From NCBI RefSeq assembly GCF_003334405.1, contig NZ_QOWM01000005.1: a stretch of 64,000 nucleotides of DNA; one strand, 5' to 3'. The stretch comes from Escherichia coli (GTDB taxonomy: Bacteria > Pseudomonadota > Gammaproteobacteria > Enterobacterales > Enterobacteriaceae). The notes under the pieces are model-generated. The model searched no databases, was not told the DNA's origin, and worked only from the letters and a program-made list of their open reading frames with translations. Positions 3,680 through 44,581 of the stretch are shown here, one piece after another. How positions within the stretch are numbered: the stretch's first letter is position 1; each line of letters begins with the position of its first letter. The position numbers were made by a program, and so were the translations under genes.

Positions 3680-4786
3680 ATGAATAAAACAATAACGGCG
3701 CTTACTATCATAATGGCTTCATTTGCCGCAAACGCGTCTGTATTACCGGAAACTCCTGTGCCATTTAAAAGTGGTACCGGAGCAATTGATAACGACACTG
3801 TCTACATTGGTTTAGGTAGCGCAGGTACGGCATGGTACAAGCTGGATACACAGGCCAAAGATAAAAGATGGACAGCGTTAGCTGCATTCCCTGGCGGACC
3901 GAGAGATCAAGCAACCTCTGCATTTATTGATGGCAATCTGTATGTGTTTGGCGGCATTGGCAAAAACAGCGAGGGCTTGACTCAGGTATTTAATGACGTA
4001 CACAAATACAACCCCAAAACCAATAGCTGGGTTAAATTGATGTCGCACGCGCCGATGGGCATGGCGGGCCATGTGACTTTTGTACACAACGGCAAGGCTT
4101 ATGTTACTGGCGGTGTTAACCAGAATATCTTCAATGGCTATTTTGAAGATCTCAACGAAGCTGGAAAAGATTCAACCGCTATAGATAAAATCAACGCCTA
4201 CTATTTTGACAAAAAAGCAGAAGATTATTTCTTCAATAAGTTTCTGTTGTCTTTTGATCCCTCAACACAGCAATGGAGTTACGCTGGCGAATCTCCCTGG
4301 TACGGAACGGCTGGTGCGGCGGTTGTGAATAAAGGTGATAAAACCTGGCTTATTAATGGCGAAGCCAAACCAGGATTGCGAACGGATGCCGTATTTGAAC
4401 TTGACTTCACCGGTGATAATTTAAAATGGAATAAGCTTGATCCCGTCTCATCACCAGATGGCGTCGCTGGCGGTTTTGCGGGGATAAGCAATGATTCTCT
4501 TATATTTGCTGGAGGGGCCGGATTCAAAGGTTCACGAGAAAATTACCAGAACGGTAAGAACTATGCGCATGAAGGCCTGAAAAAATCATATAGCGTTGAT
4601 ATTCATCTTTGGTATAACGGGAAATGGGATAAATCGGGTGAATTATCGCAAGGTCGGGCCTACGGAGTATCATTGCCCTGGAATAATAGTTTATTAATTA
4701 TTGGCGGTGAAACTGCAGGCGGCAAAGCAGTGATGGATTCAGTTTTAATTTCTGTGAAGGATAATAAAGTCACAGTACAAAACTAA
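3680..4786 (+). CDS. nanM: N-acetylneuraminate mutarotase NanM (kelch-repeat beta-propeller, secreted)
   Basis: ATG at 3680 preceded by AGGAG at 3667-3671; signal peptide MNKTITALTIIMASFAANA; repeated GG/W kelch-like motifs; matches recalled YjhT/NanM. Confidence 0.85.
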   Translation: MNKTITALTIIMASFAANASVLPETPVPFKSGTGAIDNDTVYIGLGSAGTAWYKLDTQAKDKRWTALAAFPGGPRDQATSAFIDGNLYVFGGIGKNSEGLTQVFNDVHKYNPKTNSWVKLMSHAPMGMAGHVTFVHNGKAYVTGGVNQNIFNGYFEDLNEAGKDSTAIDKINAYYFDKKAEDYFFNKFLLSFDPSTQQWSYAGESPWYGTAGAAVVNKGDKTWLINGEAKPGLRTDAVFELDFTGDNLKWNKLDPVSSPDGVAGGFAGISNDSLIFAGGAGFKGSRENYQNGKNYAHEGLKKSYSVDIHLWYNGKWDKSGELSQGRAYGVSLPWNNSLLIIGGETAGGKAVMDSVLISVKDNKVTVQN

Positions 4787-4850
4787 CGCTTCAGGGCCCC
4801 GGTAAAGGGGCCCTGCTATCAATTTGTCATTTCAATTACGCGAAATTTAT

Positions 4851-5831
4851 ATGAACGCAATAATATCGCCTGATTATTACTATATTCTTACCGTTGCTGG
4901 TCAGTCTAATGCCATGGCGTATGGCGAAGGACTGCCATTACCGGACAGGGAAGATGCGCCTCATCCCAGAATTAAACAATTAGCGAGATTTGCGCATACG
5001 CATCCCGGAGGCCCGTCATGTCACTTTAACGACATTATTCCACTGACTCACTGCCCACACGATGTTCAGGATATGCAGGGTTATCACCATCCTCTGGCAA
5101 CGAATCATCAAACACAGTACGGCACCGTTGGCCAGGCACTGCATATAGCACGGAAATTACTGCCCTTTATTCCTGATAATGCAGGGGTTCTCATCGTTCC
5201 GTGTTGCCGTGGCGGATCGGCTTTTACCGCGGGCAGCGAAGGAACATATTCAGAACGGCACGGAGCCAGCCATGATGCTTGTCGTTGGGGAACGGATACT
5301 CCGCTATACCAGGATTTAGTCAGCAGAACGCGAGCCGCACTGGCAAAAAATCCGCATAACAAATTCCTCGGCGTATGCTGGATGCAAGGCGAATTTGACT
5401 TAATGACCAGTGACTACGCGTCACACCCTCAACACTTTAATCATATGGTTGAAGCCTTTCGTAGGGATCTAAAACAATACCATTCTCAGCTTAATAATAT
5501 TACTGACGCACCGTGGTTTTGCGGCGATACCACCTGGTACTGGAAAGAAAATTTCCCTCATGCGTATGAAGTTATTTATGGCAATTATCAAAATAATGTT
5601 TTAGCCAATATTATTTTCGTCGACTTCCAGCAACAAGGTGAAAGAGGACTGACGAACGCGCCTGATGAAGACCCGGACGATTTAAGCACGGGATATTACG
5701 GTTCAGCGTACCGGTCACCGGAGAACTGGACGACGGCACTGCGAAGCAGTCATTTCAGCACGGCAGCCCGTCGGGGGATTATTTCTGACAAGTTTGTAGA
5801 AGCAATTTTGCAGTTTTGGCGCGAAAGGTGA
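4851..5831 (+). CDS. nanS: 9-O-acetyl-N-acetylneuraminate esterase NanS
   Basis: ORF from ATG 4851 (MNAIISPDYYYILTVAGQSNAMAYGEG...) with the GQSN esterase motif; third gene of the nanCMS operon order. Confidence 0.85.
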   Translation: MNAIISPDYYYILTVAGQSNAMAYGEGLPLPDREDAPHPRIKQLARFAHTHPGGPSCHFNDIIPLTHCPHDVQDMQGYHHPLATNHQTQYGTVGQALHIARKLLPFIPDNAGVLIVPCCRGGSAFTAGSEGTYSERHGASHDACRWGTDTPLYQDLVSRTRAALAKNPHNKFLGVCWMQGEFDLMTSDYASHPQHFNHMVEAFRRDLKQYHSQLNNITDAPWFCGDTTWYWKENFPHAYEVIYGNYQNNVLANIIFVDFQQQGERGLTNAPDEDPDDLSTGYYGSAYRSPENWTTALRSSHFSTAARRGIISDKFVEAILQFWRER

Positions 5832-5838
5832 GCGTTCA

Positions 5839-6489
5839 TTAATTTGATTTATTCGCATCCATCAGCGCTTTTAACTGCTCCGGCGTAAACGGTGGTTTGC
5901 GTCGGTGCAACATCGCATGGCAATTAGGGTACACAGGCAGCAAATCATTAACTGGATCCAGCTGGTAATCCTCTTTAATGGCTGACAGCGGCACCAGGTG
6001 ATGCACATGGATAAAGCCTTCAGCGATATCACCATAGATCTTCACCAGATCAACACCGCATACGTTGCACTGGCATCCATGATGTTCGACCGCTTTATCT
6101 CGGGCCTTTTTATCGCGTTCATAGCGGTTTACTGTCACCTTTATCGCCGCACCTTCAAGGTATGTCTCCTGCGACGGCAACTCATCCGGGAACAGAACGT
6201 CGGCTATGGGAGCCGCAGCGGCTTTATCCAGATGAATATGAAATCCCTGCTCTATGAGTAGCTTGACACATTTAGATTTTATTCCGCCGGTGAAATCCGC
6301 AGGGGTAAATTGCGTCCCCGTCATCAATGTCGCTGCGATGCCAGCAATCGCCTTCGAGGGGTAACGTCGGCCATGATATTCAATCTCATACAACCGCGCA
6401 GGCTGGAACTGATGAGTTTCTCCCGCATCCCATAAATGGATAGCTTCGATGATATACCGCCGCGGAAGATGATCAGGGAGTTTATTCAT
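5839..6489 (-). CDS. McrA-like HNH endonuclease (candidate modification-dependent restriction enzyme)
   Basis: 216-aa ORF; C-terminal HNH motif CQCNVCG...HVHHLVPLS...NDLLPVYPNCHAMLH; N-terminal ~100 aa unassigned putative DNA-recognition domain. Confidence 0.55.
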   Translation of the reverse strand: MNKLPDHLPRRYIIEAIHLWDAGETHQFQPARLYEIEYHGRRYPSKAIAGIAATLMTGTQFTPADFTGGIKSKCVKLLIEQGFHIHLDKAAAAPIADVLFPDELPSQETYLEGAAIKVTVNRYERDKKARDKAVEHHGCQCNVCGVDLVKIYGDIAEGFIHVHHLVPLSAIKEDYQLDPVNDLLPVYPNCHAMLHRRKPPFTPEQLKALMDANKSN

Positions 6490-7257
6490 GGAGAATGTCC
6501 TTATACGTTCTCAGAACAGGCAGCAAAAAAACAAATGAGATCAAGGTAATATATCTTCACTTGCAGGCTTGAACAGCAGAAAATTTGCGAGCATGATCGC
6601 AATTATTTCACTGCCAGGGATATCAATAGCTTCCAGTAAATCGCTACAGCAGGCAATTGCCAATATAAAAATCTGGCACAAGGGTGAACAGCGCGCGCCG
6701 CATAAGCCATTGTTATTGCTATACGTATTAGCGGGATACCTGAATGGACATCCGCGCCTTTTCGATTATTGTAGTGGAACAGTCTACGAGGATGCAGTTC
6801 GAAGTGAGTAAGTAAAGGTTGCTGGAAACGATCAATGCCGCCATACAATGATTTTTTAGGATCAACAATGAGTAATAAAAACTACGAAAGTCACCGCAAA
6901 GCGATTGTTAGTAAAGGTATACCACCCGCTCTATTAAATAGGCTCACCAATTCGGATGTTCAGGTGATCAATACCTTCTTAACACGAGTGAGCAAACTGG
7001 AACTATCTCAACAAGAGAAAGACTGGATCATAAAAATCATCTCTATGGTTTAGACAATTTCAGCCTTGTAGCCTTTCAAGGGTTTTGTGTGGGTACAAAC
7101 ATTATCGAATCGGGGTATAGCCGCAGCTGTAGCTGTATCCACATCAGTAAGTTGATGTAGGTTGACTTAGGTTGAGCGAAAAATAGCGAAAAGCCTTGTG
7201 TGGCGCGGATTTCAGTCATAAAAAAACGTCCGTTGATGTCTATTGATGTTCCGATGG

Positions 7258-7300
7258 TGCGAAGGTGCAAAGGTGCGAAGGCCGGACTCAAACATGTGAC
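7258..7300 (-). repeat. Degenerate direct repeat of the leuX tRNA 3' end (att remnant marking the distal island boundary)
   Basis: GGTGCGAAGGCCGGACTCAAAC, with an internal duplication, resembles TGGTGCCGAAGGCCGGACTCGAACC at 44497-44521; about 100 bp below it also resembles the leuX-proximal flank. Confidence 0.5.
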
Positions 7301-10149: not shown

Positions 10150-10560
10150 AATTTGCTCCTTATCGGTGGTTAAGATTTACTGGTGTAATAAATGAAAAAG
10201 CCACGTCTCCCGGAGAAGACGCGGCCTGATGGGTGAAATGAATGACGTTTATTGTCTGAGAAGACCGTCACTGGCGAGCCGCGTATTAAGCACCTTTCCG
10301 GCATCGGGTTCAGAATTCCGGCAGCGCCAGCGTCGCTGACCTTCCGCGTTGCGGATAACCCGACGGAAATGCATTCCCGGGTCATCCTGGATAAACACAT
10401 TGCGGTAAGCGGTTATGACAGCAACCGCCTGCCCGTATGAGAAAGATCCTTCAGCCAGGACATACTCTGTGTAACCCGGCATATCTGTTTTCTCCTGATA
10501 AATAAAAAGCCTCTGCCACGCGTTGTGACAGAGGCTGAAGCATGAAACTGACTTCAGGGA

Positions 10561-11016
10561 TCAGTTAACGTTTTTTCCGGAAACGGTAATCAGCAGTGGA
10601 TGGTAGTCCTGGGGATTGAAAACCGATAACGGCAGACTGACACGATGGCCGTTACTTTCTTCAGTTGCTTTGATGATTTCGGTTGTGGCGACATTTTCCA
10701 CGCACTCCGTTTCCAGAAATGCGTCTGTGGTTCGCGTGGCATTACTGTCACCAAAAGCTTCCGTTTCCATTTTTCTGGTCACCAGCGTCTGACCATATTT
10801 GTCTTTGAGTTGCAGAGTGATGGTGAGGGGGCCAAATCCTTCATCGTTTCCGCCATTATCCAGCCGGAACTGGTAAGCACAAATATTTCCCGGGAGCCAT
10901 ATCGTATCTGTATTGCGTATACTGATGTAACGTTGATCCTGTGCCCGGAGTGGGGCAGACCACGTTAACCCCAGAATGAAGGCGGTAATCATGCAGGTTT
11001 TGAACAGGTGAATCAT
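10561..11016 (-). CDS. Hypothetical secreted protein (signal peptide)
   Basis: 151-aa ORF with hydrophobic N-terminal MITAFILGLTWSAPLRA followed by a polar domain; no motif recognised. Confidence 0.4.
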   Translation of the reverse strand: MIHLFKTCMITAFILGLTWSAPLRAQDQRYISIRNTDTIWLPGNICAYQFRLDNGGNDEGFGPLTITLQLKDKYGQTLVTRKMETEAFGDSNATRTTDAFLETECVENVATTEIIKATEESNGHRVSLPLSVFNPQDYHPLLITVSGKNVN

Positions 11017-18074: not shown

Positions 18075-18592
18075 ATGTCTGACCGCGCCACTACCACAGC
18101 TTCCTTAACGTTCGAGTCGCTTTATGGCACACATCACGGCTGGTTGAAAAGCTGGCTGACGCGCAAACTCCAGTCTGCTTTTGATGCAGATGACATTGCC
18201 CAGGACACTTTTTTGCGGGTAATGGTCAGCGAAACGCTCTCGACGATCCGCGATCCTCGCTCCTTCCTCTGCACTATCGCCAAACGCGTGATGGTGGACC
18301 TGTTTCGCCGAAACGCGCTGGAAAAAGCGTATCTGGAGATGCTGGCGCTTATGCCGGAGGGGGGAGCGTCTTCACCTGAGGAACGCGAAAGCCAACTCGA
18401 GACCCTACAACTCCTCGACAGCATGCTGGACGGGCTAAACGGCAAAACACGTGAAGCGTTTCTGCTTTCGCAACTGGATGGTCTGACATACAGCGAGATT
18501 GCGCACAAACTCGGTGTTTCCATCAGCTCCGTGAAAAAATACGTGGCGAAAGCCGTCGAGCACTGCCTGCTGTTCCGTCTGGAGTATGGGTT

Positions 18593-18596
<4 letters not shown>
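18075..18596 (+). CDS. fecI: ECF sigma factor FecI
   Basis: 173-aa ORF with sigma-70 region 2 and region 4 helix-turn-helix; followed by fecR and fecABCDE. Confidence 0.9.
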
Positions 18597-21957
<3,361 letters not shown>

Positions 21958-25620: not shown

Positions 25621-26177
25621 ATTGCACAGGCCGTAAGAACCAAACCACGACTGAATGAAACTGGACTGGCGCCAGCAAGCCTGTTCAGACTGGGGCTGAA
25701 CTTTTCCGGACTCTGAAAGATTACCAATACTCATCGTCCATCCGCTTGCTTTAGGCTGACAGGTTCATAATCAACGCAAACCAGAGCTGTACAGGCTTGG
25801 GCGCGGCTTTCAAACCAGTCGTGATCACGGCAATCAATTTTGAACTCTGCTTAACGGACATTTCTGTATAACCCTTACGGCAACGAAAAACGCGAAGTTA
25901 AAATTTTAGAAACCCAAAAACGTGACATGACTAAGTTTAGATTTCAGGGGGGGAGATCAAAAAATTTCGCTCTGTGCCAGAGCGGACATTCACGGAGCTG
26001 GTTCATTACCAATGAGGTTGGGCTTTTGAGGATAAATCAATGATCAGACGCCAACGTAAATCAAAAGCAACCCTGGAACGGAATTGCTAATCCAGTTTCT
26101 GACCATCGATTTTTCTAAAAAGTGTGCGTTTGCTACTACTTAGGTAGGTGCAGCTTTCTTAATCACCGGCAGCCACG

Positions 26178-26519
26178 TTATACAGGCCAGTTGATGGATC
26201 GATTGTTATCAATGATATCTTCATGAGTCGGTGTCTCACCCAGCTTACCGAAGCTGGCATAAAGTGAAGGCAGACGGGCCCGTCCTTCTCCCTTTTTCGC
26301 CAGAGGGAAAGCGCGAAGCATGGTGGCAGCCTCCCAGTCACAACAATAGGATGGTGTGCACGGCTGCTGACGCCATGATTCAGCGATAGAGCCGGAAAAT
26401 ACGGGGTCAAAGCCGGTATCATTAACCAGAGTCATCGTGACCTGTACTGCGGCTGGATGATCTCCTGCTACTGCAACTGCTAGGCGACCGCGGCTCCCTT
26501 CAGGTAGTGAAGTGGTCAA
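26178..26519 (-). pseudogene. Possible C-terminal fragment of a dinucleotide-binding oxidoreductase-like gene
   Basis: 113-aa ORF isolated between the fec and dnd modules with no obvious N-terminal domain; assignment is a weak guess. Confidence 0.25.
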
Positions 26520-26837
26520 CTTAAACTGGCCACCGATTTAGAGTTTTTCCAGTAGCGGTGTTCCGATTCGTTTGGGGGCAACCCGCCGTTATTGTCATGC
26601 GGTCTTAGCGAGCTGTAATACCCGATGATATAGTCTGTGATCGCATGAGCAGCTTCGCTAAAGCTTATGCGTTAGCGCTCTACAGAAGTACAGAGCATGT
26701 CTGCACGGTTGCTCTGGGTTATAGAGCAAAATTGCGGGTATATTGAAAGGTGGTACGCAATTTATTACGTGAAAAAGCTGTAATTTCTAGCCAGTGTTAC
26801 GTAAAATATAACGTAACAAAATTCACCTTATGCTTTT

Positions 26838-27935
26838 ATGGATTACAGCATGGCTAGTGTTGATGCAGATTACTGCTACTCGTTTCCGGCTATACGTGGC
26901 ATTCAGGCTGGTCGCCCTTTCTATATCGCCACATGCCCGATGCGTATCATCCCGAAAATATTCAGTTTTGATGAAAATGATGTGCCACCGGAATTACGCG
27001 CACAGCGCACGCTAAATAAATCGCGCATTCCCGAGATGGTACGTTATTTGTTGGAAAACCCTAAAGATTATGTGTTTTCAGCTCTGACGGCTTCCATTGC
27101 CGTAGACGTTCAATTTGATGAGTTTCCAGGTTCTAACAATCTGGGGACGTTGTGCGTACCAATGGATGCGCAAATTCTAATCAATGATGGACAACATCGC
27201 CGTAAAGCGATTGAAGACGCTTTAGACGCTCGTCCGGAGCTGGGCCAGGATAATATCCCGGTGTTGTTCTTTGTCGATGAAGGCTTAAAGCGTAGCCAGC
27301 AGATGTTCGCCGATCTGAATAAATACGCCATTCGCCCCAGCCCATCGCTGGCGTCGCTATACGATCATCGCGATGCCTGTTCGAATCTGGCGCGTTATCT
27401 GGCAATGTCAGTAGAGCCGTTTGTTGGGATGACGGAACTGGAAAAATCTGGCATTAGCCAGAGGTCGAATAAGCTATTTACGTTGAGCAGCATCAAGCAG
27501 GCTACCCGCGCATTGTTGGGCAAAGATCCCAAAGAGGATAACTTTGAGGAATGCACCCACATTGCTACCCAATATTGGCAGGCTATTTTTAGTGTAATGC
27601 CTGATTGGCAATTAGCGGCTAAAAAGGAAGTTTCACCGGTTCAATTGCGACAAGATTATGTTCACGCTCATGGCATTGGATTGCAGGCACTTGGGCAACT
27701 AGGATATACCCTGCTGACGGATTATCCTGAGCAATGGCCGGAGAAAATCGCTGCACTCAAAACATTTAACTGGCGTAGAAACAATCCGGACCTCATCAAG
27801 CGAGCGATGCAGCATGGGAAGTTGAGTAAAACCAGTACCGCGATCCAGTTAACCTGCAATGCGCTAAAAACCGCACTCTCAATTCCCCTCACTCCTGAAG
27901 AACAGGAGCTTGAAGCTCAAATGGTTGTCTCATGA
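26838..27935 (+). CDS. dndB: DNA phosphorothioation regulator DndB (DGQHR domain)
   Basis: 365-aa ORF containing the DGQHR motif (INDGQHRRKAI); first gene of a dndBCDE-ordered cluster. Confidence 0.85.
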   Translation: MDYSMASVDADYCYSFPAIRGIQAGRPFYIATCPMRIIPKIFSFDENDVPPELRAQRTLNKSRIPEMVRYLLENPKDYVFSALTASIAVDVQFDEFPGSNNLGTLCVPMDAQILINDGQHRRKAIEDALDARPELGQDNIPVLFFVDEGLKRSQQMFADLNKYAIRPSPSLASLYDHRDACSNLARYLAMSVEPFVGMTELEKSGISQRSNKLFTLSSIKQATRALLGKDPKEDNFEECTHIATQYWQAIFSVMPDWQLAAKKEVSPVQLRQDYVHAHGIGLQALGQLGYTLLTDYPEQWPEKIAALKTFNWRRNNPDLIKRAMQHGKLSKTSTAIQLTCNALKTALSIPLTPEEQELEAQMVVS

Positions 27936-29555: not shown

Positions 29556-31556
29556 GTGCTCATTAAACAGCTGGTATTACATAATTTTCGGGTATTTAAC
29601 GGTACACATACCATTGATCTGGCACCCAGAAAGCGTCCGCACGATTTGAATCCACGACCTATTGTGCTGTTTGGTGGTTTAAACGGCGCAGGGAAAACGT
29701 CTATCCTGTCGGCGATCCGCATAGCGTTGTATGGACGACTGGCGTTTGGGCTAGCGACTCAACAGCAAGAGTATATCGAACAACTCAGTGCATTGATTCA
29801 TAACGGCGCGTACTATATTGAGCAGCCGGAAGAAGCATCTGTAGAACTGACGTTTACCTATAATAAAGGCGGTCATGAGGCCGAATTTACCGTTACGCGA
29901 ACCTGGAAAAAGGGGAAGAGGGACCGCCTTTCTCTGCAACAGGATGGGCAGCCACTCAGTGAGCTGGATTACGATCAGTGCCAGGGATTTCTAAATGAGT
30001 TAATTCCGCATGGCATTGCTGATTTGTTCTTTTTCGATGGCGAGAAAATTGCAGAACTTGCTGAGGACGAATCCGGTAATATTTTACGTACTGCCGTACG
30101 ACGCTTATTGGGGCTGGATCTCATCTCTAAACTGCGTAACGATTTAATGATTTTTGTTAAGCGTCAGCAATCCAGCCAGCTAGCAAGTTCTCAGCAACAA
30201 CAGATTGCAGAGCTTGAAAAACAGAGTAAAGAATTAGCCTGCCAGACAGAAGCACTGCTGGAAAGCGCCGATTTTGCCAAATCGCGGATTGAGTTTCTAT
30301 CTAAAGATATAACCCATTATGAAGGCTTGCTAAATGCTCAGGGGGGCGCTTTTGCCCAGACTAAAGCGCAGGAAAAACAGAAAGTCGAAACGCTGCTAAA
30401 AGATAAAGAACATCTGGAAAAAGCACTGAGACAAGAATGCGATGGCTCGCTACCTTATGCGCTTGCGCCCACTATTTTGTCTCATTTGCTGCAACAAATT
30501 GCTGATGAAACGCAAATTAAACAGGCAAAAAGCTTTGAAAAAGAGCTGAGCCAGTTTTTAACGCAACTCAGAAATGATATTGCATTTCGTTCTGCGGGGA
30601 CTGGCAAAATAGCAGCTGAAGCGATTACCGATAATCTAAAAGATTATATGGCAACGAAACCAAAAGGTGATTTGCTCTTTGATATCTCTGAGCGTGAAGC
30701 AGGTATGCTTCAACAGTCTATTGAGATAGATAGTAAAAGAGCATGGCAGCGTTTCGAGCTTTATCGCACACAGTTATCTGAGATTGAACAACAGTTAGAA
30801 CAAGCGGCTGCTAATATTGCCCGCGCTCCTGAAGATGAGCAGCTGATGGATCTCTTTGAAAAATTACGTGACCTGGATAGGCAGCGCGAAGCCCAATTGC
30901 AGAAATATCGGTCATTGCTAGAAGATGCTAAACGTAAAAAACAGCAGCAACTGGATTGTGTTCGTCAGATTCAAAAAGCGCATGACGCCGCTCGTTATCA
31001 GCACAGTTATAGCAGTGCGTTTAAGAATGCTCAGGAAACGATAAATTTACTCGATCGCTACAGCGATGTATTAACCCAGGCTCGGGTAAAAACGCTGTCG
31101 ACAAACTTCGAGCTTGCTTACCGTAAGTTGGCTCGCAAAGAGGATTTACAACTTAGTGCGCATATCAACCCTCAAACGTTTGATGTTGAATTAATTGATG
31201 AGAATGGCTCAGTAATTAACCGTAAGTTACTTTCTGCTGGTGAAAAACAGATTTATGCAATTGCTATTCTTGAGGCGCTGGCGAAAACCTCTGGCCGTGA
31301 TTTACCAGTGATCATTGATACACCATTGGGTCGTCTGGACTCTCAACATCGAGATAAATTGATTAATCACTACTTCCCTGAAGCCAGTCATCAGGTTGTG
31401 TTGCTTTCTACCGATACTGAAGTAGATGAACGTTATTTTGTTGATCAGTTGCGTGATGATATCTCTCATGCTTATGAGATTGTGTTTAATGCACATACTA
31501 AGTCATCAACGCTGAAGCCTGGTTATTTCTGGGAATTAACTAAGGAGGCTATCTGA
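29556..31556 (+). CDS. dndD: DNA phosphorothioation SMC-like ATPase DndD
   Basis: Walker A GGLNGAGKTS, long central coiled-coil, C-terminal signature/Walker B region; likely start GTG 29556 after GGAGGAG, whereas the ORF track uses TTG 29538. Confidence 0.85.
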   Translation: MLIKQLVLHNFRVFNGTHTIDLAPRKRPHDLNPRPIVLFGGLNGAGKTSILSAIRIALYGRLAFGLATQQQEYIEQLSALIHNGAYYIEQPEEASVELTFTYNKGGHEAEFTVTRTWKKGKRDRLSLQQDGQPLSELDYDQCQGFLNELIPHGIADLFFFDGEKIAELAEDESGNILRTAVRRLLGLDLISKLRNDLMIFVKRQQSSQLASSQQQQIAELEKQSKELACQTEALLESADFAKSRIEFLSKDITHYEGLLNAQGGAFAQTKAQEKQKVETLLKDKEHLEKALRQECDGSLPYALAPTILSHLLQQIADETQIKQAKSFEKELSQFLTQLRNDIAFRSAGTGKIAAEAITDNLKDYMATKPKGDLLFDISEREAGMLQQSIEIDSKRAWQRFELYRTQLSEIEQQLEQAAANIARAPEDEQLMDLFEKLRDLDRQREAQLQKYRSLLEDAKRKKQQQLDCVRQIQKAHDAARYQHSYSSAFKNAQETINLLDRYSDVLTQARVKTLSTNFELAYRKLARKEDLQLSAHINPQTFDVELIDENGSVINRKLLSAGEKQIYAIAILEALAKTSGRDLPVIIDTPLGRLDSQHRDKLINHYFPEASHQVVLLSTDTEVDERYFVDQLRDDISHAYEIVFNAHTKSSTLKPGYFWELTKEAI

Positions 31557-31991: not shown

Positions 31992-33155
31992 TCATATTGC
32001 TAATTTTAAAATTAATTCACCGGCATCAGGCGAATGTATCAGCGTAGCTAAATGTGAACCACACTTGCAAGAATTGAAGTTGCTGTCCACTTTAAATTTA
32101 AAGCGTCCGTTAGCAACCTCAGCATATCGGTAATTTTCATTCTCACTTTTCTCTTTTAGTTCGATCCTGAATTCATTATTGATATTTTCTAAGCAATATA
32201 AGAATTTTTCTATCTCATATTCGTTAGTTTCAATCCAAAGAGCAATTGCAAAACCCTTTAAGGTAGATAAATGCTTATCCGATAAGATTTTAGACAGCTC
32301 AATGAAAAAATCATGATGATCACAAGTCATAGCATCGAACTCGCCCTCAAGATAATCGGCATCCACGCCTAATTTTGCAGCATAAGCCTGAATGTTATTT
32401 TTTATACACTCTATAACTTCTGCTTCTGGTGGTAAATTATTTTCTGAGGGTAGGAAAACATTTTTAATACAATCTGAATTTATTCCTCTGCTTTTAACTT
32501 GATCGGCATCGTAAACAGATACTATGTTCAGGCCAGAGCTATCTTTATAATGCTCAGATACTTTTTGTATATTAGATTCACCTTGTAGATTATGTAAGTA
32601 ACATGTAGAGTAAAGATGTGTGTTTTTTATTTTTAAGATATATTCAAGTACAAGTTTTGCAAAGTCATCCTCTATCAGGAAAATATTTTTCCTTTCAGGA
32701 GCTAAACCCAGTGCATTGAAATATCTATAATTATATCCACAATTTGATATGGTATATTTTTTGCCTTTTTTAGCTAAGACTAATACTGAGTTTAAGCCTT
32801 GAGGGCTGAGTATGTGTTCAGAGTGAGTAGCCATCAAAACATTTAATTTTTTAGTATCGATTGTGTAGGCTAAAAAATCCATGAAATTTTTCTGGCTTAC
32901 CGGGCAAATAAAACTCTCTGGCTCTTCAATGAAGAGGATTGAATTTTTTTCCGTATAAATAAGTTTCCAGATTGCTATAAGTAACTTATGTTCTCCTTGC
33001 CCCATACTCTCTGACGTATAAACTATATTACTGTTAACCTCTTTAACCTCAAAGTATGGGAAAGTTAAATCATCAATAATTCCTTCTACCTCATTAACTT
33101 TTACATACTCATATTTCTTGCCTGTGATTTTCTGAACAAAAAAAAAGATTTTCAT
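31992..33155 (-). CDS. ABC/OLD-like ATPase, C-terminal part (Walker B, H-loop and TOPRIM-like region); separated from its N-terminal part by a frameshift
   Basis: 387-aa ORF with LFIEEPESF (Walker B-like), MATHSEHIL, and a TOPRIM-like IFLIEDDF ... YDAD; begins with ATG directly abutting the T9 tract. Confidence 0.6.
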   Translation of the reverse strand: MKIFFFVQKITGKKYEYVKVNEVEGIIDDLTFPYFEVKEVNSNIVYTSESMGQGEHKLLIAIWKLIYTEKNSILFIEEPESFICPVSQKNFMDFLAYTIDTKKLNVLMATHSEHILSPQGLNSVLVLAKKGKKYTISNCGYNYRYFNALGLAPERKNIFLIEDDFAKLVLEYILKIKNTHLYSTCYLHNLQGESNIQKVSEHYKDSSGLNIVSVYDADQVKSRGINSDCIKNVFLPSENNLPPEAEVIECIKNNIQAYAAKLGVDADYLEGEFDAMTCDHHDFFIELSKILSDKHLSTLKGFAIALWIETNEYEIEKFLYCLENINNEFRIELKEKSENENYRYAEVANGRFKFKVDSNFNSCKCGSHLATLIHSPDAGELILKLAI

Positions 33156-33603
33156 TTAGCAAATGATAAGAATTTGATGTATTGAACCATCCATTTTTGT
33201 TTGGCGATGTGTTTATTTCGTTTATGATTTTTAATGCCATTGATGAAGCATCAAAATATTCAACATTTCTTAGTCCATCACCCAAAGACGAAGTGAAAGT
33301 TTGTTTCTCTCCATTAATTATTATATCAATGGAGATATTATCAATATCAGAAGAGCTAAAAATCCCAACATTACATATATCTTTCGACAGTATACCATAG
33401 ATAAGTTTCAATAACGACGTTTTACCAATGCCATTTCTTCCACATATAGAGGTTAAAGCTGAGTTTATCGTAATATCAGCATCTTCAAAGAGTGGTACAT
33501 TCTTAATGGATAAACTACATATTTTAATATTAAACTTTTTCCTGTTTGCCACATGATTCCAATAATCAGCTAATTTTGCCATTTTAATTGTTTCTATTGA
33601 CAT
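33109..33603 (-). CDS. ABC/OLD-like ATPase, N-terminal part (Walker A)
   Basis: 164-aa ORF with Walker A GRNGIGKTS; it reads through the T9 tract and terminates 12 codons later. Removing one T joins it in frame to the 387-aa ORF. Confidence 0.6.
   Translation of the reverse strand: MSIETIKMAKLADYWNHVANRKKFNIKICSLSIKNVPLFEDADITINSALTSICGRNGIGKTSLLKLIYGILSKDICNVGIFSSSDIDNISIDIIINGEKQTFTSSLGDGLRNVEYFDASSMALKIINEINTSPNKNGWFNTSNSYHLLNENLFFCSENHRQEI
33138..33146 (-). repeat. T9 homopolymer (A9 on the plus strand) at the junction of the two ATPase ORFs
   Basis: Nine consecutive A at 33138-33146 on the plus strand; on the coding strand ATC TTT TTT TTT GTT. Confidence 0.8.
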
Positions 33604-34799
33604 GTAGTTACCCCCGCTAAAACAGAATCTGCATAATTGTTGACGACGCTTATCAGATTCTTTTCATTTTCATGATAAAGTGCTCTATGCGCAGTTTTTA
33701 GATTATTTTTTTTCATCGTATTGAACACATCTGCTTTACTGGGGTCACTCTTCAAGAAAAATAGAGATATTATAAAGTCTCTGATGAGTAAGGAAGTACC
33801 AGTCATTACTCTTGATACAGCCCTAAAATTAAATTCTTCCAATAACTCCTTTACTTCATCTTTATTTTCACAATAAAACAATCCATCCAACACTCCCTCT
33901 TCTCTGAAAACGAATCTACCACTTTCAAAGCGGTAAAAGAAATCACTAAGGCTATCGTCTAAATTATAATTCGATTTTAAAATGGTTGAAAAAAAATAAA
34001 GCCATGAAGTTAAAGTGGCTTTTGTTATATGAACCTTACTTTCTTCACTATCAATCTTTTTCTTTGCCTTACTTAATATTAAAATGGATTTTTTTACTAG
34101 TTCTATGATTGAATTATCAAAAGGCTCATCTTCACGAGCCCTGTCGTTTAATTGCTTTTCTGTATAAGAAGCAATCAATGAATCCTTCTCAAGCATGTAG
34201 CAAAGTTTAATGAAAAGATCATGGTATGCCATCCTTTGATTACTAAAGCCTAGAAAGTGCTTGTCAAGCCCACAATCCGACATATAATCTACGAGAGATT
34301 TTATCTGGTTTCTTAAATCGCCAACATAAGCATTTCTCTTTTCTGCTGAAGTTAATTTAAGAGATTCATTCAATCTGTTGAATAGTTCACCGGGCTCTCC
34401 CTGATTGTATTCAACAATCTCAAATACTCGAATGGCATACCGTTCAAATCTGTTTTTTATTCTTTGAGGTAATTTATCAAAAGTTAATCCATCTAATTCT
34501 TTGATATCATCATCAATAGGTTCAATTAATCCATTTATTTTGAATTTATTATACATGAAATCTCTTATGGCACTTAATCGTTGCTGTCCATCGAGAACTT
34601 CTTGAATATAGGAATCTTCATTTAAAATAACATGGACAGGTGGAACCTGCCACCCTCTTAGAATAGTATCGATTAAAAGTTTTTTCTTCGGAAGTTGCCA
34701 GACTTCCGCCCTCTGGAAATCGGGTTGGAGATCTAGACTTCCTTCATGAATCCTAGAAAATATAGTCCTCAAATCTGGATCTGTAGTATTTATTTTCAT
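33594..34799 (-). CDS. DUF262-like (ParB/Srx-fold, DGQQR motif) protein
   Basis: 401-aa ORF with LQPDFQRAEVWQ ... VLDGQQRLSAI in the N-terminal 100 aa; its ATG overlaps the dptH stop (ATGA at 34796-34799). Confidence 0.65.
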   Translation of the reverse strand: MKINTTDPDLRTIFSRIHEGSLDLQPDFQRAEVWQLPKKKLLIDTILRGWQVPPVHVILNEDSYIQEVLDGQQRLSAIRDFMYNKFKINGLIEPIDDDIKELDGLTFDKLPQRIKNRFERYAIRVFEIVEYNQGEPGELFNRLNESLKLTSAEKRNAYVGDLRNQIKSLVDYMSDCGLDKHFLGFSNQRMAYHDLFIKLCYMLEKDSLIASYTEKQLNDRAREDEPFDNSIIELVKKSILILSKAKKKIDSEESKVHITKATLTSWLYFFSTILKSNYNLDDSLSDFFYRFESGRFVFREEGVLDGLFYCENKDEVKELLEEFNFRAVSRVMTGTSLLIRDFIISLFFLKSDPSKADVFNTMKKNNLKTAHRALYHENEKNLISVVNNYADSVLAGVTTCQ

Positions 34800-44496: not shown

Positions 44497-44581
44497 TGGT
44501 GCCGAAGGCCGGACTCGAACCGGCACGTATTTCTACGGTTGATTTTGAATCAACTGCGTCTACCGATTTCGCCACTTCGGC
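44497..44581 (-). tRNA. leuX: tRNA-Leu (CAA anticodon), leuX
   Basis: Reverse complement reads GCCGAAGTGGCGAAATCGGTAGACGCAGTTGATTCAAAATCAACCGTAGAAATACGTGCCGGTTCGAGTCCGGCCTTCGGCACCA, 85 nt with CAA anticodon, long variable arm and encoded CCA. Confidence 0.9.

Follow-up and report, generated by a model that had tools for sequence, protein, structure and literature searches.

The head-HNH gene and its setting at the edge of the leuX island

The DNA studied here is a stretch of 64,000 nucleotides from Escherichia coli (contig NZ_QOWM01000005.1 of the assembly GCF_003334405.1; hereafter the window). On its minus strand, positions 5839-6489 contain an ATG-started open reading frame (ORF) of 216 amino acids, whose product is identical to the protein WP_001037966.1, called "HNH endonuclease" by RefSeq at identical loci. 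We refer to it as head-HNH, after the two domains described below. A Shine-Dalgarno sequence (AAGGA) is located 9 nt upstream of the ATG, and 7 nt separate the end of the ORF from the end of the nanS ORF (5831). This is a real gene and not a chance ORF, since a homology search recovered 1054 homologues at E<=1e-3, RefSeq annotates the gene, and the ratio of nonsynonymous to synonymous polymorphism (pN/pS) among seven E. coli alleles, including those of lineages devoid of the partner gene, is comprised between 0.04 and 0.25.

This partner is represented in the window by a remnant. The positions 6626-6769 (plus strand) correspond to codons 1-48 of an EcoWI-like "phosphorothioated DNA-binding restriction endonuclease", annotated as a pseudogene by RefSeq. 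In its intact form the gene encodes 290 amino acids, with a sulfur-binding domain (SBD) followed by a HNH_2 nuclease domain, and is designated here SBD-HNH. The start codon is ATA in the window and ATG in the intact alleles, and the DNA homology to the intact locus of E. coli XH993 ends at position 6769. The remnant displays 76% identity with the first 50 amino acids of the intact Citrobacter farmeri protein. Against the phosphorothioate (PT)-DNA restriction model NF045808, it obtains 61 bits (model positions 2-45 of 284) and fails the cut-off of 180 bits, compared with 418-439 bits for the intact alleles.

The two genes are divergent and the region between them (6490-6625) was delimited from the sequence and from a cross-genus alignment. 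It is poorly conserved outside an 18-bp palindrome, TTGCGAGCATGATCGCAA, located at 6585-6602, 24 nt upstream of the SBD-HNH start. This palindrome, of the general form TTGCGAGCAT(N)ATCGCAA, is exactly conserved 24-31 nt upstream of the start of all the SBD-HNH genes examined, with K-12 and O157 as the only exceptions; it was found in the nanS-type loci, in Citrobacter, Klebsiella and Enterobacter, in E. coli W and in the loci of an integrative and conjugative element (ICE), where it is kept even though the SBD-HNH proteins are only 52% identical. Scans for promoters, terminators and composition gave nothing above the shuffled expectation except the palindrome, which probably serves the SBD-HNH genes as an operator or a leader element.

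The gene order in the window is fimB, nanC, nanM, nanS and head-HNH, followed by an island anchored at leuX (tRNA-Leu, 44497-44581). This island includes a CP4-like module, insertion sequence (IS) elements, the fec operon, dndBCDE, a DUF262 protein, an ATP-dependent nuclease, dptFGH and an integrase. The leuX 3' end is repeated, in direct orientation and in a degenerate form, at 7272-7293, ~780 nt from head-HNH (ggtgcgaaggccggactcaaac, compared with ggtgccgaaggccggactcgaac at 44498-44520 for the leuX 3' end). This degenerate copy of the tRNA 3' end marks the far edge of the present island (~7294-44497), and head-HNH therefore lies just outside it. The position between nanS and the degenerate att repeat, given by the initial annotation, is confirmed by these two limits. 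The leuX locus is the E. coli defence hotspot #37 (PMC12707154), and the defence neighbours of the homologous loci in other genomes are Kiwa, type I restriction-modification (RM), Mrr_N-HNH, McrC and Zorya.

Other features of this edge were observed. An ORF of 72 amino acids (6835-7053, plus strand) lies between the SBD-HNH remnant and the att-like repeat, and the stretch up to position 7100 is 100% identical to that of strains bearing other islands. The gene nanS (4824-5831, plus strand) forms an uninterrupted ORF in the window, where the homology with K-12 reaches its end, although RefSeq treats its counterpart in several related genomes as a partial pseudogene.

Domain architecture of head-HNH

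The AlphaFold 2 (AF2) model of head-HNH (pLDDT 84) comprises two confident domains on either side of a disordered linker (residues 91-120, positions 6130-6219, minus strand) where pLDDT falls to 47-63. The N-terminal domain (residues 1-90, positions 6220-6489, minus strand) displays an alpha-beta-beta-alpha-alpha-beta fold. It had at first been left unassigned, and the newer Pfam release now places it in the family ScoMcrA_N (PF26345), the "head" of ScoMcrA. The C-terminal domain (residues 121-216, positions 5842-6129, minus strand) is a McrA-type HNH (beta-beta-alpha-Me) nuclease domain, delimited from the alignments of homologues and of EcoKMcrA. The protein by itself gives a weak match with the Pfam HNH family (E=0.006, old release). 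A profile built from 89 homologues matches ScoMcrA (5ZMM) with E=1e-11, in the stretches 4-94 (head, independent E-value 1.7e-6) and 456-534 (HNH), and EcoKMcrA (6GHC) with E=1.3e-5, in the HNH domain only. The same two structures were retrieved by Foldseek with the AF2 model. These matches bear out the C-terminal HNH domain that had been read from the motifs HVHHLVPLS and NCHAMLH, both of which are present, and the layout, a small N-terminal module followed by HNH, matches the plan of type IV restriction enzymes, as had been proposed.

The residues H163/H164, N189, H191 and H195 are invariant in the homologue alignments, and H228, H229, H252 and H256 of EcoKMcrA align with H163, H164, H191 and H195, respectively. 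According to the roles established for EcoKMcrA (PMC6182155), the catalytic set of the McrA-type HNH domains (His nucleophile activator, metal-ligand His and motif Asn) is complete in the window protein. C141 and C144 are zinc ligands.

Several other identities of the N-terminal domain were considered and rejected. As SBD, SRA or EVE it remains below threshold in Pfam, NCBIfam and PADLOC, and the PDB searches by sequence and by fold give only the ScoMcrA head. No SBD (PF26340) or SRA was detected elsewhere in the polypeptide, where Pfam, NCBIfam and the PDB give no match beyond head and HNH, and a length of 216 amino acids leaves no room for these additional domains. With the model NF045808, head-HNH scores 17 bits (cut-off 180). 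The N-terminal domain of EcoKMcrA (NEco), which binds 5-methylcytosine and 5-hydroxymethylcytosine, was not found either, only the HNH region aligning with this enzyme. The profile and structure searches thus exclude the SBD, SRA and EVE readers that had been listed as candidates, and their assignment of the domain to the head family speaks neither for nor against DNA binding. The relation with ScoMcrA suggested by the initial annotation is real for both head and HNH, but the sulfur-binding domain is in the adjacent pseudogene. A phage origin of head-HNH was also rejected, the PHROGs matches covering the HNH part only.

The head domain in other restriction-like proteins

The head profile matches 3434 cluster representatives. 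In 90 multi-domain head proteins, the additional domains are HNH (37), HNH_2 (19), EVE (12), AAA_5 (7), NOV_C (7), nSTAND3 (6), DUF3427 (3), SRA (2), MrcB_N (2) and AspBHI_N (1). A separate check with NCBIfam indicates that six of ten long head-containing proteins match the McrB family of GTPases, and similar partners of the head are seen in AFDB50. Conversely, the HNH subtype of the window protein is fused elsewhere to EVE, DpnI_C and DUF3427 readers, which occupy the position of the head. Judged by its domain partners, the head belongs firmly among the type IV restriction modules.

The divergent two-gene cassette and its decay in E. coli

In its intact state, the cassette is a 1.65-kb pair in which the 290-amino-acid SBD-HNH gene is divergent from head-HNH. 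Besides E. coli, it is found in C. farmeri, in three other Citrobacter species and in Klebsiella aerogenes. Enterobacter sp. JUb54 has the pair as well, with a SBD-HNH ORF that may be disrupted. The chromosomal neighbours of the pair vary with the genus. On an E. coli ICE, genes of the two types are separated by 4 kb. The SBD of the partner aligns to the residues 97-232 of ScoMcrA, immediately C-terminal to the head (4-94), and ScoMcrA is therefore a natural fusion of the two enterobacterial sensor domains. The window does not qualify as such a cassette, its adjacent divergent partner being truncated. Elsewhere, head-HNH is found alone in Pantoea, Pseudescherichia and non-enterobacterial genomes.

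In two loci of Sulfurimonadaceae, a distant head-HNH gene is located ~1 kb from a gene for a protein of 315 amino acids (3985-4932 and 615-1562 of the retrieved loci), with a NUDIX gene beside. The HNH_2 half of this protein is homologous to the C-terminus of SBD-HNH and its N-terminal 176 amino acids have no assignment; the locus may represent another pairing of a reader-HNH_2 enzyme with head-HNH.

E. coli W contains, beside the leuX integrase, a SBD-HNH homologue of 291 amino acids and 33.41 kDa, 76.6% identical to the nanS-type protein. The published mass of EcoWI is 33.4 kDa (PMC7461809), and by its name and mass the E. coli W gene is the probable EcoWI gene; no accession number is given for EcoWI in the original paper (PMC7461809), its supplement or later papers.

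The distribution of the two genes was determined in 5426 complete E. coli genomes. Among these, 1239 contain at least 80% of the head-HNH gene, and in ~658 of the latter the allele is at least 99% identical to that of the window. In ~1485 genomes only the 3'-terminal 85-105 nt of head-HNH are left, the equivalent of window positions 5945-6515 being deleted. Concerning SBD-HNH, the 3' 720 nt of the gene are present in 1707 genomes, and the truncation junction of the window is shared by 967. Both genes are present, as an intact pair at the same nanS position, in ~337 genomes. SBD-HNH is kept and head-HNH deleted in ~1400 genomes, and the reverse is observed in ~900. The low pN/pS values, which include the partnerless lineages, indicate that head-HNH is maintained by selection on its own.

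On the nanS side at least four decay states can be recognized: both genes intact, SBD-HNH cut at codon 48, head-HNH lost by the 571-bp deletion (window 5945-6515), and the state of K-12. In the latter, ~89 codons of the SBD-HNH gene are left, with a different junction, and head-HNH is lost except for codons 1-8; this remnant and its junction rule out that K-12 carries the truncation of the window. The small K-12 gene ythB overlaps the decay scar (10393-10626 of the retrieved K-12 locus). In O157, SBD-HNH is kept beside leuX, and head-HNH and nanS are gone.

Replacement of a structural zinc ligand

Codon 187 of the window gene (5929-5931, minus strand; gta on the plus strand) is TAC (Tyr), where the homologues have TGC, coding for the Cys that comes third among the ligands of the structural zinc. 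Among 108 homologues, this position is Cys in 105, Tyr in two (both this E. coli allele) and Gly in one. Cys is also conserved in 68 of 68 enzymes that combine the same HNH subtype with other N-terminal domains, and in all six of the remaining E. coli alleles, including two whose partner is likewise truncated. In EcoKMcrA the structural Zn of the HNH domain is held by two CxxC motifs (PMC6182155). This site is incomplete here, C141-x2-C144 being kept and the second motif being Y187-x2-C190. The alignment thus gives a divided answer concerning the possible degeneracy of the HNH domain: the catalytic His and Asn residues are preserved, whereas the CxxC...CxxC site has lost its third Cys, in this allele only.

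The replacements Q87L and V111L are likewise unique to the window allele. Since loci with a truncated partner and C187 exist, the truncation of SBD-HNH preceded C187Y, and a simultaneous origin of both changes is ruled out by the same loci. A frameshifted derivative of the Y187 allele was detected, and further frameshifted members are found in the 90% cluster. In TagI, the replacement of Cys by Ala in the CxxC motif drastically lowers the activity (PMC6212794); by analogy, the activity of the Y187 head-HNH is probably reduced or lost.

Relation to the dnd system

The dndC gene of the window is 100% identical to that of E. coli B7A. Among the complete genomes, this dnd island is present in 15 and any dndC in 207. 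The identical Y187 allele was found in another strain beside Kiwa and type I RM, not dnd. A truncation of SBD-HNH caused by the gain of dnd by the host was considered and rejected as a specific link, the junction occurring in 967 genomes versus 15 with this dnd island and 207 with any dndC, the allele being beside Kiwa elsewhere, and three dnd-positive strains described below keeping a SBD-HNH. Both the truncation and the Y187 allele greatly outnumber dnd, and no specific link with dnd was found. The initial annotation had considered that a sulfur-binding domain beside a dnd cluster would be worthy of notice; the same allele and the same truncation are found in hundreds of genomes devoid of dnd.

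EcoWI cuts at GpsAAC/GpsTTC (N7/N6) and completely restricts plasmids with the dnd genes of E. coli B7A (PMC7461809). However, the strains FORC_041 and UMB200201_11 possess a B7A-type dnd island (dndC 99-100% identical to that of the window) together with an apparently intact SBD-HNH (WP_000168567.1), head-HNH being deleted. The SBD-HNH gene (30668-31540 of the retrieved locus in FORC_041 and 18333-19205 in UMB200201_11) is 5-19 kb from dndB. An active PT-dependent nuclease beside a PT writer would destroy its own host, which makes this coexistence a puzzle: strains with the same dnd island hold an apparently intact close homologue of the enzyme that destroys DNA modified by that dnd system. 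In comparison with the XH993 protein, this SBD-HNH has the replacements H40N, H208Q, R255K and Y276F. H208Q is found only in these two strains among eight SBD-HNH sequences (seven nanS-type alleles and E. coli W).

E. coli 55989 similarly has dndBCDE-dptFGH at leuX and an intact ICE-type SBD-HNH (26169-27041 of the retrieved locus). In this strain, SBD-HNH is in a remnant ICE segment (MobH, ArdC) and a tyrosine recombinase is found where the ICE-type head-HNH would be.

In the few dnd-positive genomes that could be read, the two genes are never intact together, in a sample far too small to be meaningful. No head-HNH with C187 was found in seven dnd-positive genomes with a readable nanS locus; a count of zero among seven is expected by chance (p ~0.45), since only ~11% of genomes have a C187 copy.

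As for the dnd region itself, a DUF262 protein and an ATP-dependent nuclease (named from the identical RefSeq locus) are inserted between dndE and dptH in the window (31992-34799, minus strand), and E. coli 55989 has other genes in the slot between the dnd and dpt operons.

Interpretation of the locus

We favour, with some reserve, the view that the window holds the orphaned and probably crippled head-HNH half of a mobile cassette, and that an intact head-HNH would be a free-standing type IV-like nuclease. The cassette, head-HNH plus the EcoWI-family SBD-HNH, sits next to nanS, immediately beyond the distal border of the leuX hotspot. Its architecture, domain partners and defence-island context suggest that intact head-HNH is probably a type IV-like defence nuclease, in which the HNH domains would dimerise and cut and the head would provide DNA targeting or the sensing of a modification. 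Decay began with the reduction of SBD-HNH to 48 codons with a dead start and continued with C187Y, Q87L and V111L in head-HNH; from these changes, the window copy is most likely a weakened or inactive relic.

Several observations weigh against this view. The Y187-type ORF is intact in ~658 genomes, and its comparison with the nearest sampled allele gives 3 nonsynonymous and 11 synonymous differences (pN/pS 0.08). Some HNH enzymes tolerate zinc sites with three ligands or of the type CxxD/CxxH (PMC6212794), so the Y187 protein may stay active. The co-occurrence of the two genes (~337 genomes observed, ~390 expected under independence) indicates that the cassette may be a unit of linkage and not of function. 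EcoWI alone is dimeric, fully restricts PT-DNA and is active in vitro as well as in vivo (PMC7461809). When it occurs in larger proteins, the head usually forms an additional domain at the N-terminus, preceding a known reader (SBD and SRA in ScoMcrA, a full McrB in P0230); primary sensing is thus only one possible role, and the head may be accessory. Finally, the literature reports no function for the head domain and no assayed member of the head-HNH family.

The first three of these points, and the conservation of H163/H164, N189, H191 and H195, would suit a window copy that is a fully active, autonomous type IV enzyme, with its zinc held by three Cys and a water molecule or a neighbouring residue, and that restricts modified foreign DNA. 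TagI itself is natively CxxD and other members of its family are CxxH (PMC6212794). We nevertheless consider this alternative as doubtful: Tyr does not usually bind zinc, the near-invariance of Cys187 extends to enzymes with other sensors, the Cys to Ala replacement in TagI is severely detrimental, and the three lineage-specific replacements are accompanied by frameshifted derivatives.

A bolder proposal, rather unlikely in our opinion, is that the head is an unrecognised reader of DNA or of its modification in a large type IV family (the 3434 cluster representatives, with their HNH, HNH_2, McrB GTPase, NOV_C, EVE and SRA fusions), and that head-HNH and SBD-HNH, cooperating as the halves of a split ScoMcrA, would be incompatible with a resident dnd system jointly and not singly. 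If true, this joint incompatibility would explain that the B7A-type dnd strains keep one half and never both, in the few cases seen.

The association of the two genes could also mean that head-HNH forms hetero-oligomers with SBD-HNH or regulates it, for instance through its head, which would bind the palindrome, as a split ScoMcrA that would have no role without its partner. The divergent adjacency is indeed kept in four genera and in varied contexts, one ICE carries both genes, the head and the SBD are fused at adjacent positions of ScoMcrA, the palindrome precedes nearly all the SBD-HNH genes examined, and both genes were never seen intact together in the dnd-positive genomes. But EcoWI does not need a partner, and in E. 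coli W, where the palindrome is present, the 50 kb retrieved around leuX showed no head-HNH (a region that covers ~35 kb of the island and possibly stops short of nanS). Moreover, each gene is frequent without the other, head-HNH is under purifying selection without its partner, and for many head-HNH genes outside Enterobacteriaceae no SBD gene lies closer than 10 kb. We therefore regard this dependence as improbable.

Finally, it is very improbable that head-HNH itself senses PT-DNA and that C187Y was selected by the dnd of the host, as its kinship to ScoMcrA, the adjoining SBD gene and the absence of C187 in the seven readable dnd-positive genomes might suggest, since the protein has no SBD, the sulfur is read in ScoMcrA by the SBD and not by the head (PMC6224610), the Y187 allele also resides beside Kiwa and type I RM with ~658 carriers versus 15 for this dnd island, and the zero of seven is expected by chance.

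The orphaned-half view that we favour corrects the annotation at the locus: next to the B7A-type dnd island, PT sensing belongs to the truncated neighbour and not to the 216-amino-acid protein. Beyond this locus, about one E. coli genome in four carries head-HNH, a predicted nuclease, and since the head recurs in thousands of restriction-like proteins, a ligand identified for this domain would annotate a large family.

Comparison with known systems

ScoMcrA (Sco4631, 5ZMM) of Streptomyces coelicolor, with the organization head-SBD-SRA-HNH, shares with head-HNH the N-terminal head and the HNH domain of CxxC...CxxC type. Head-HNH differs by its size (216 amino acids versus 561 for the crystallised chain) and by the absence of SBD and SRA, which confer on ScoMcrA its known specificities; in enterobacteria the SBD is encoded by another gene alongside, where it is joined to an HNH_2-type nuclease domain of its own. 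EcoKMcrA of E. coli K-12 (6GHC, NEco-HNH) has the same two-domain plan, a similar size and the same catalytic residues of the HNH domain, but its N-terminal domain is unrelated, and one zinc ligand is lost in the window allele. The neighbouring pseudogene belongs to the EcoWI/NF045808 family of SBD-HNH enzymes, as does the intact partner in other strains (438 bits versus the cut-off of 180). The 216-amino-acid protein is no member of this family (17 bits), and the window keeps only codons 1-48 of the partner. A related organization is that of the enzymes in which a sensor precedes HNH, such as the EVE-HNH VcaM4I, the SRA-HNH TagI, DUF3427-HNH and wH-HNH, the HNH subtype NRYERDxxAR...PNCHAMLH being itself fused to EVE, DUF3427 and DpnI_C in other genomes. 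Unlike in these enzymes, the sensor slot is held here by the PF26345 head, for which no ligand is reported, and head-HNH is predicted to be an ordinary, new member of this modular sensor-HNH type IV family.
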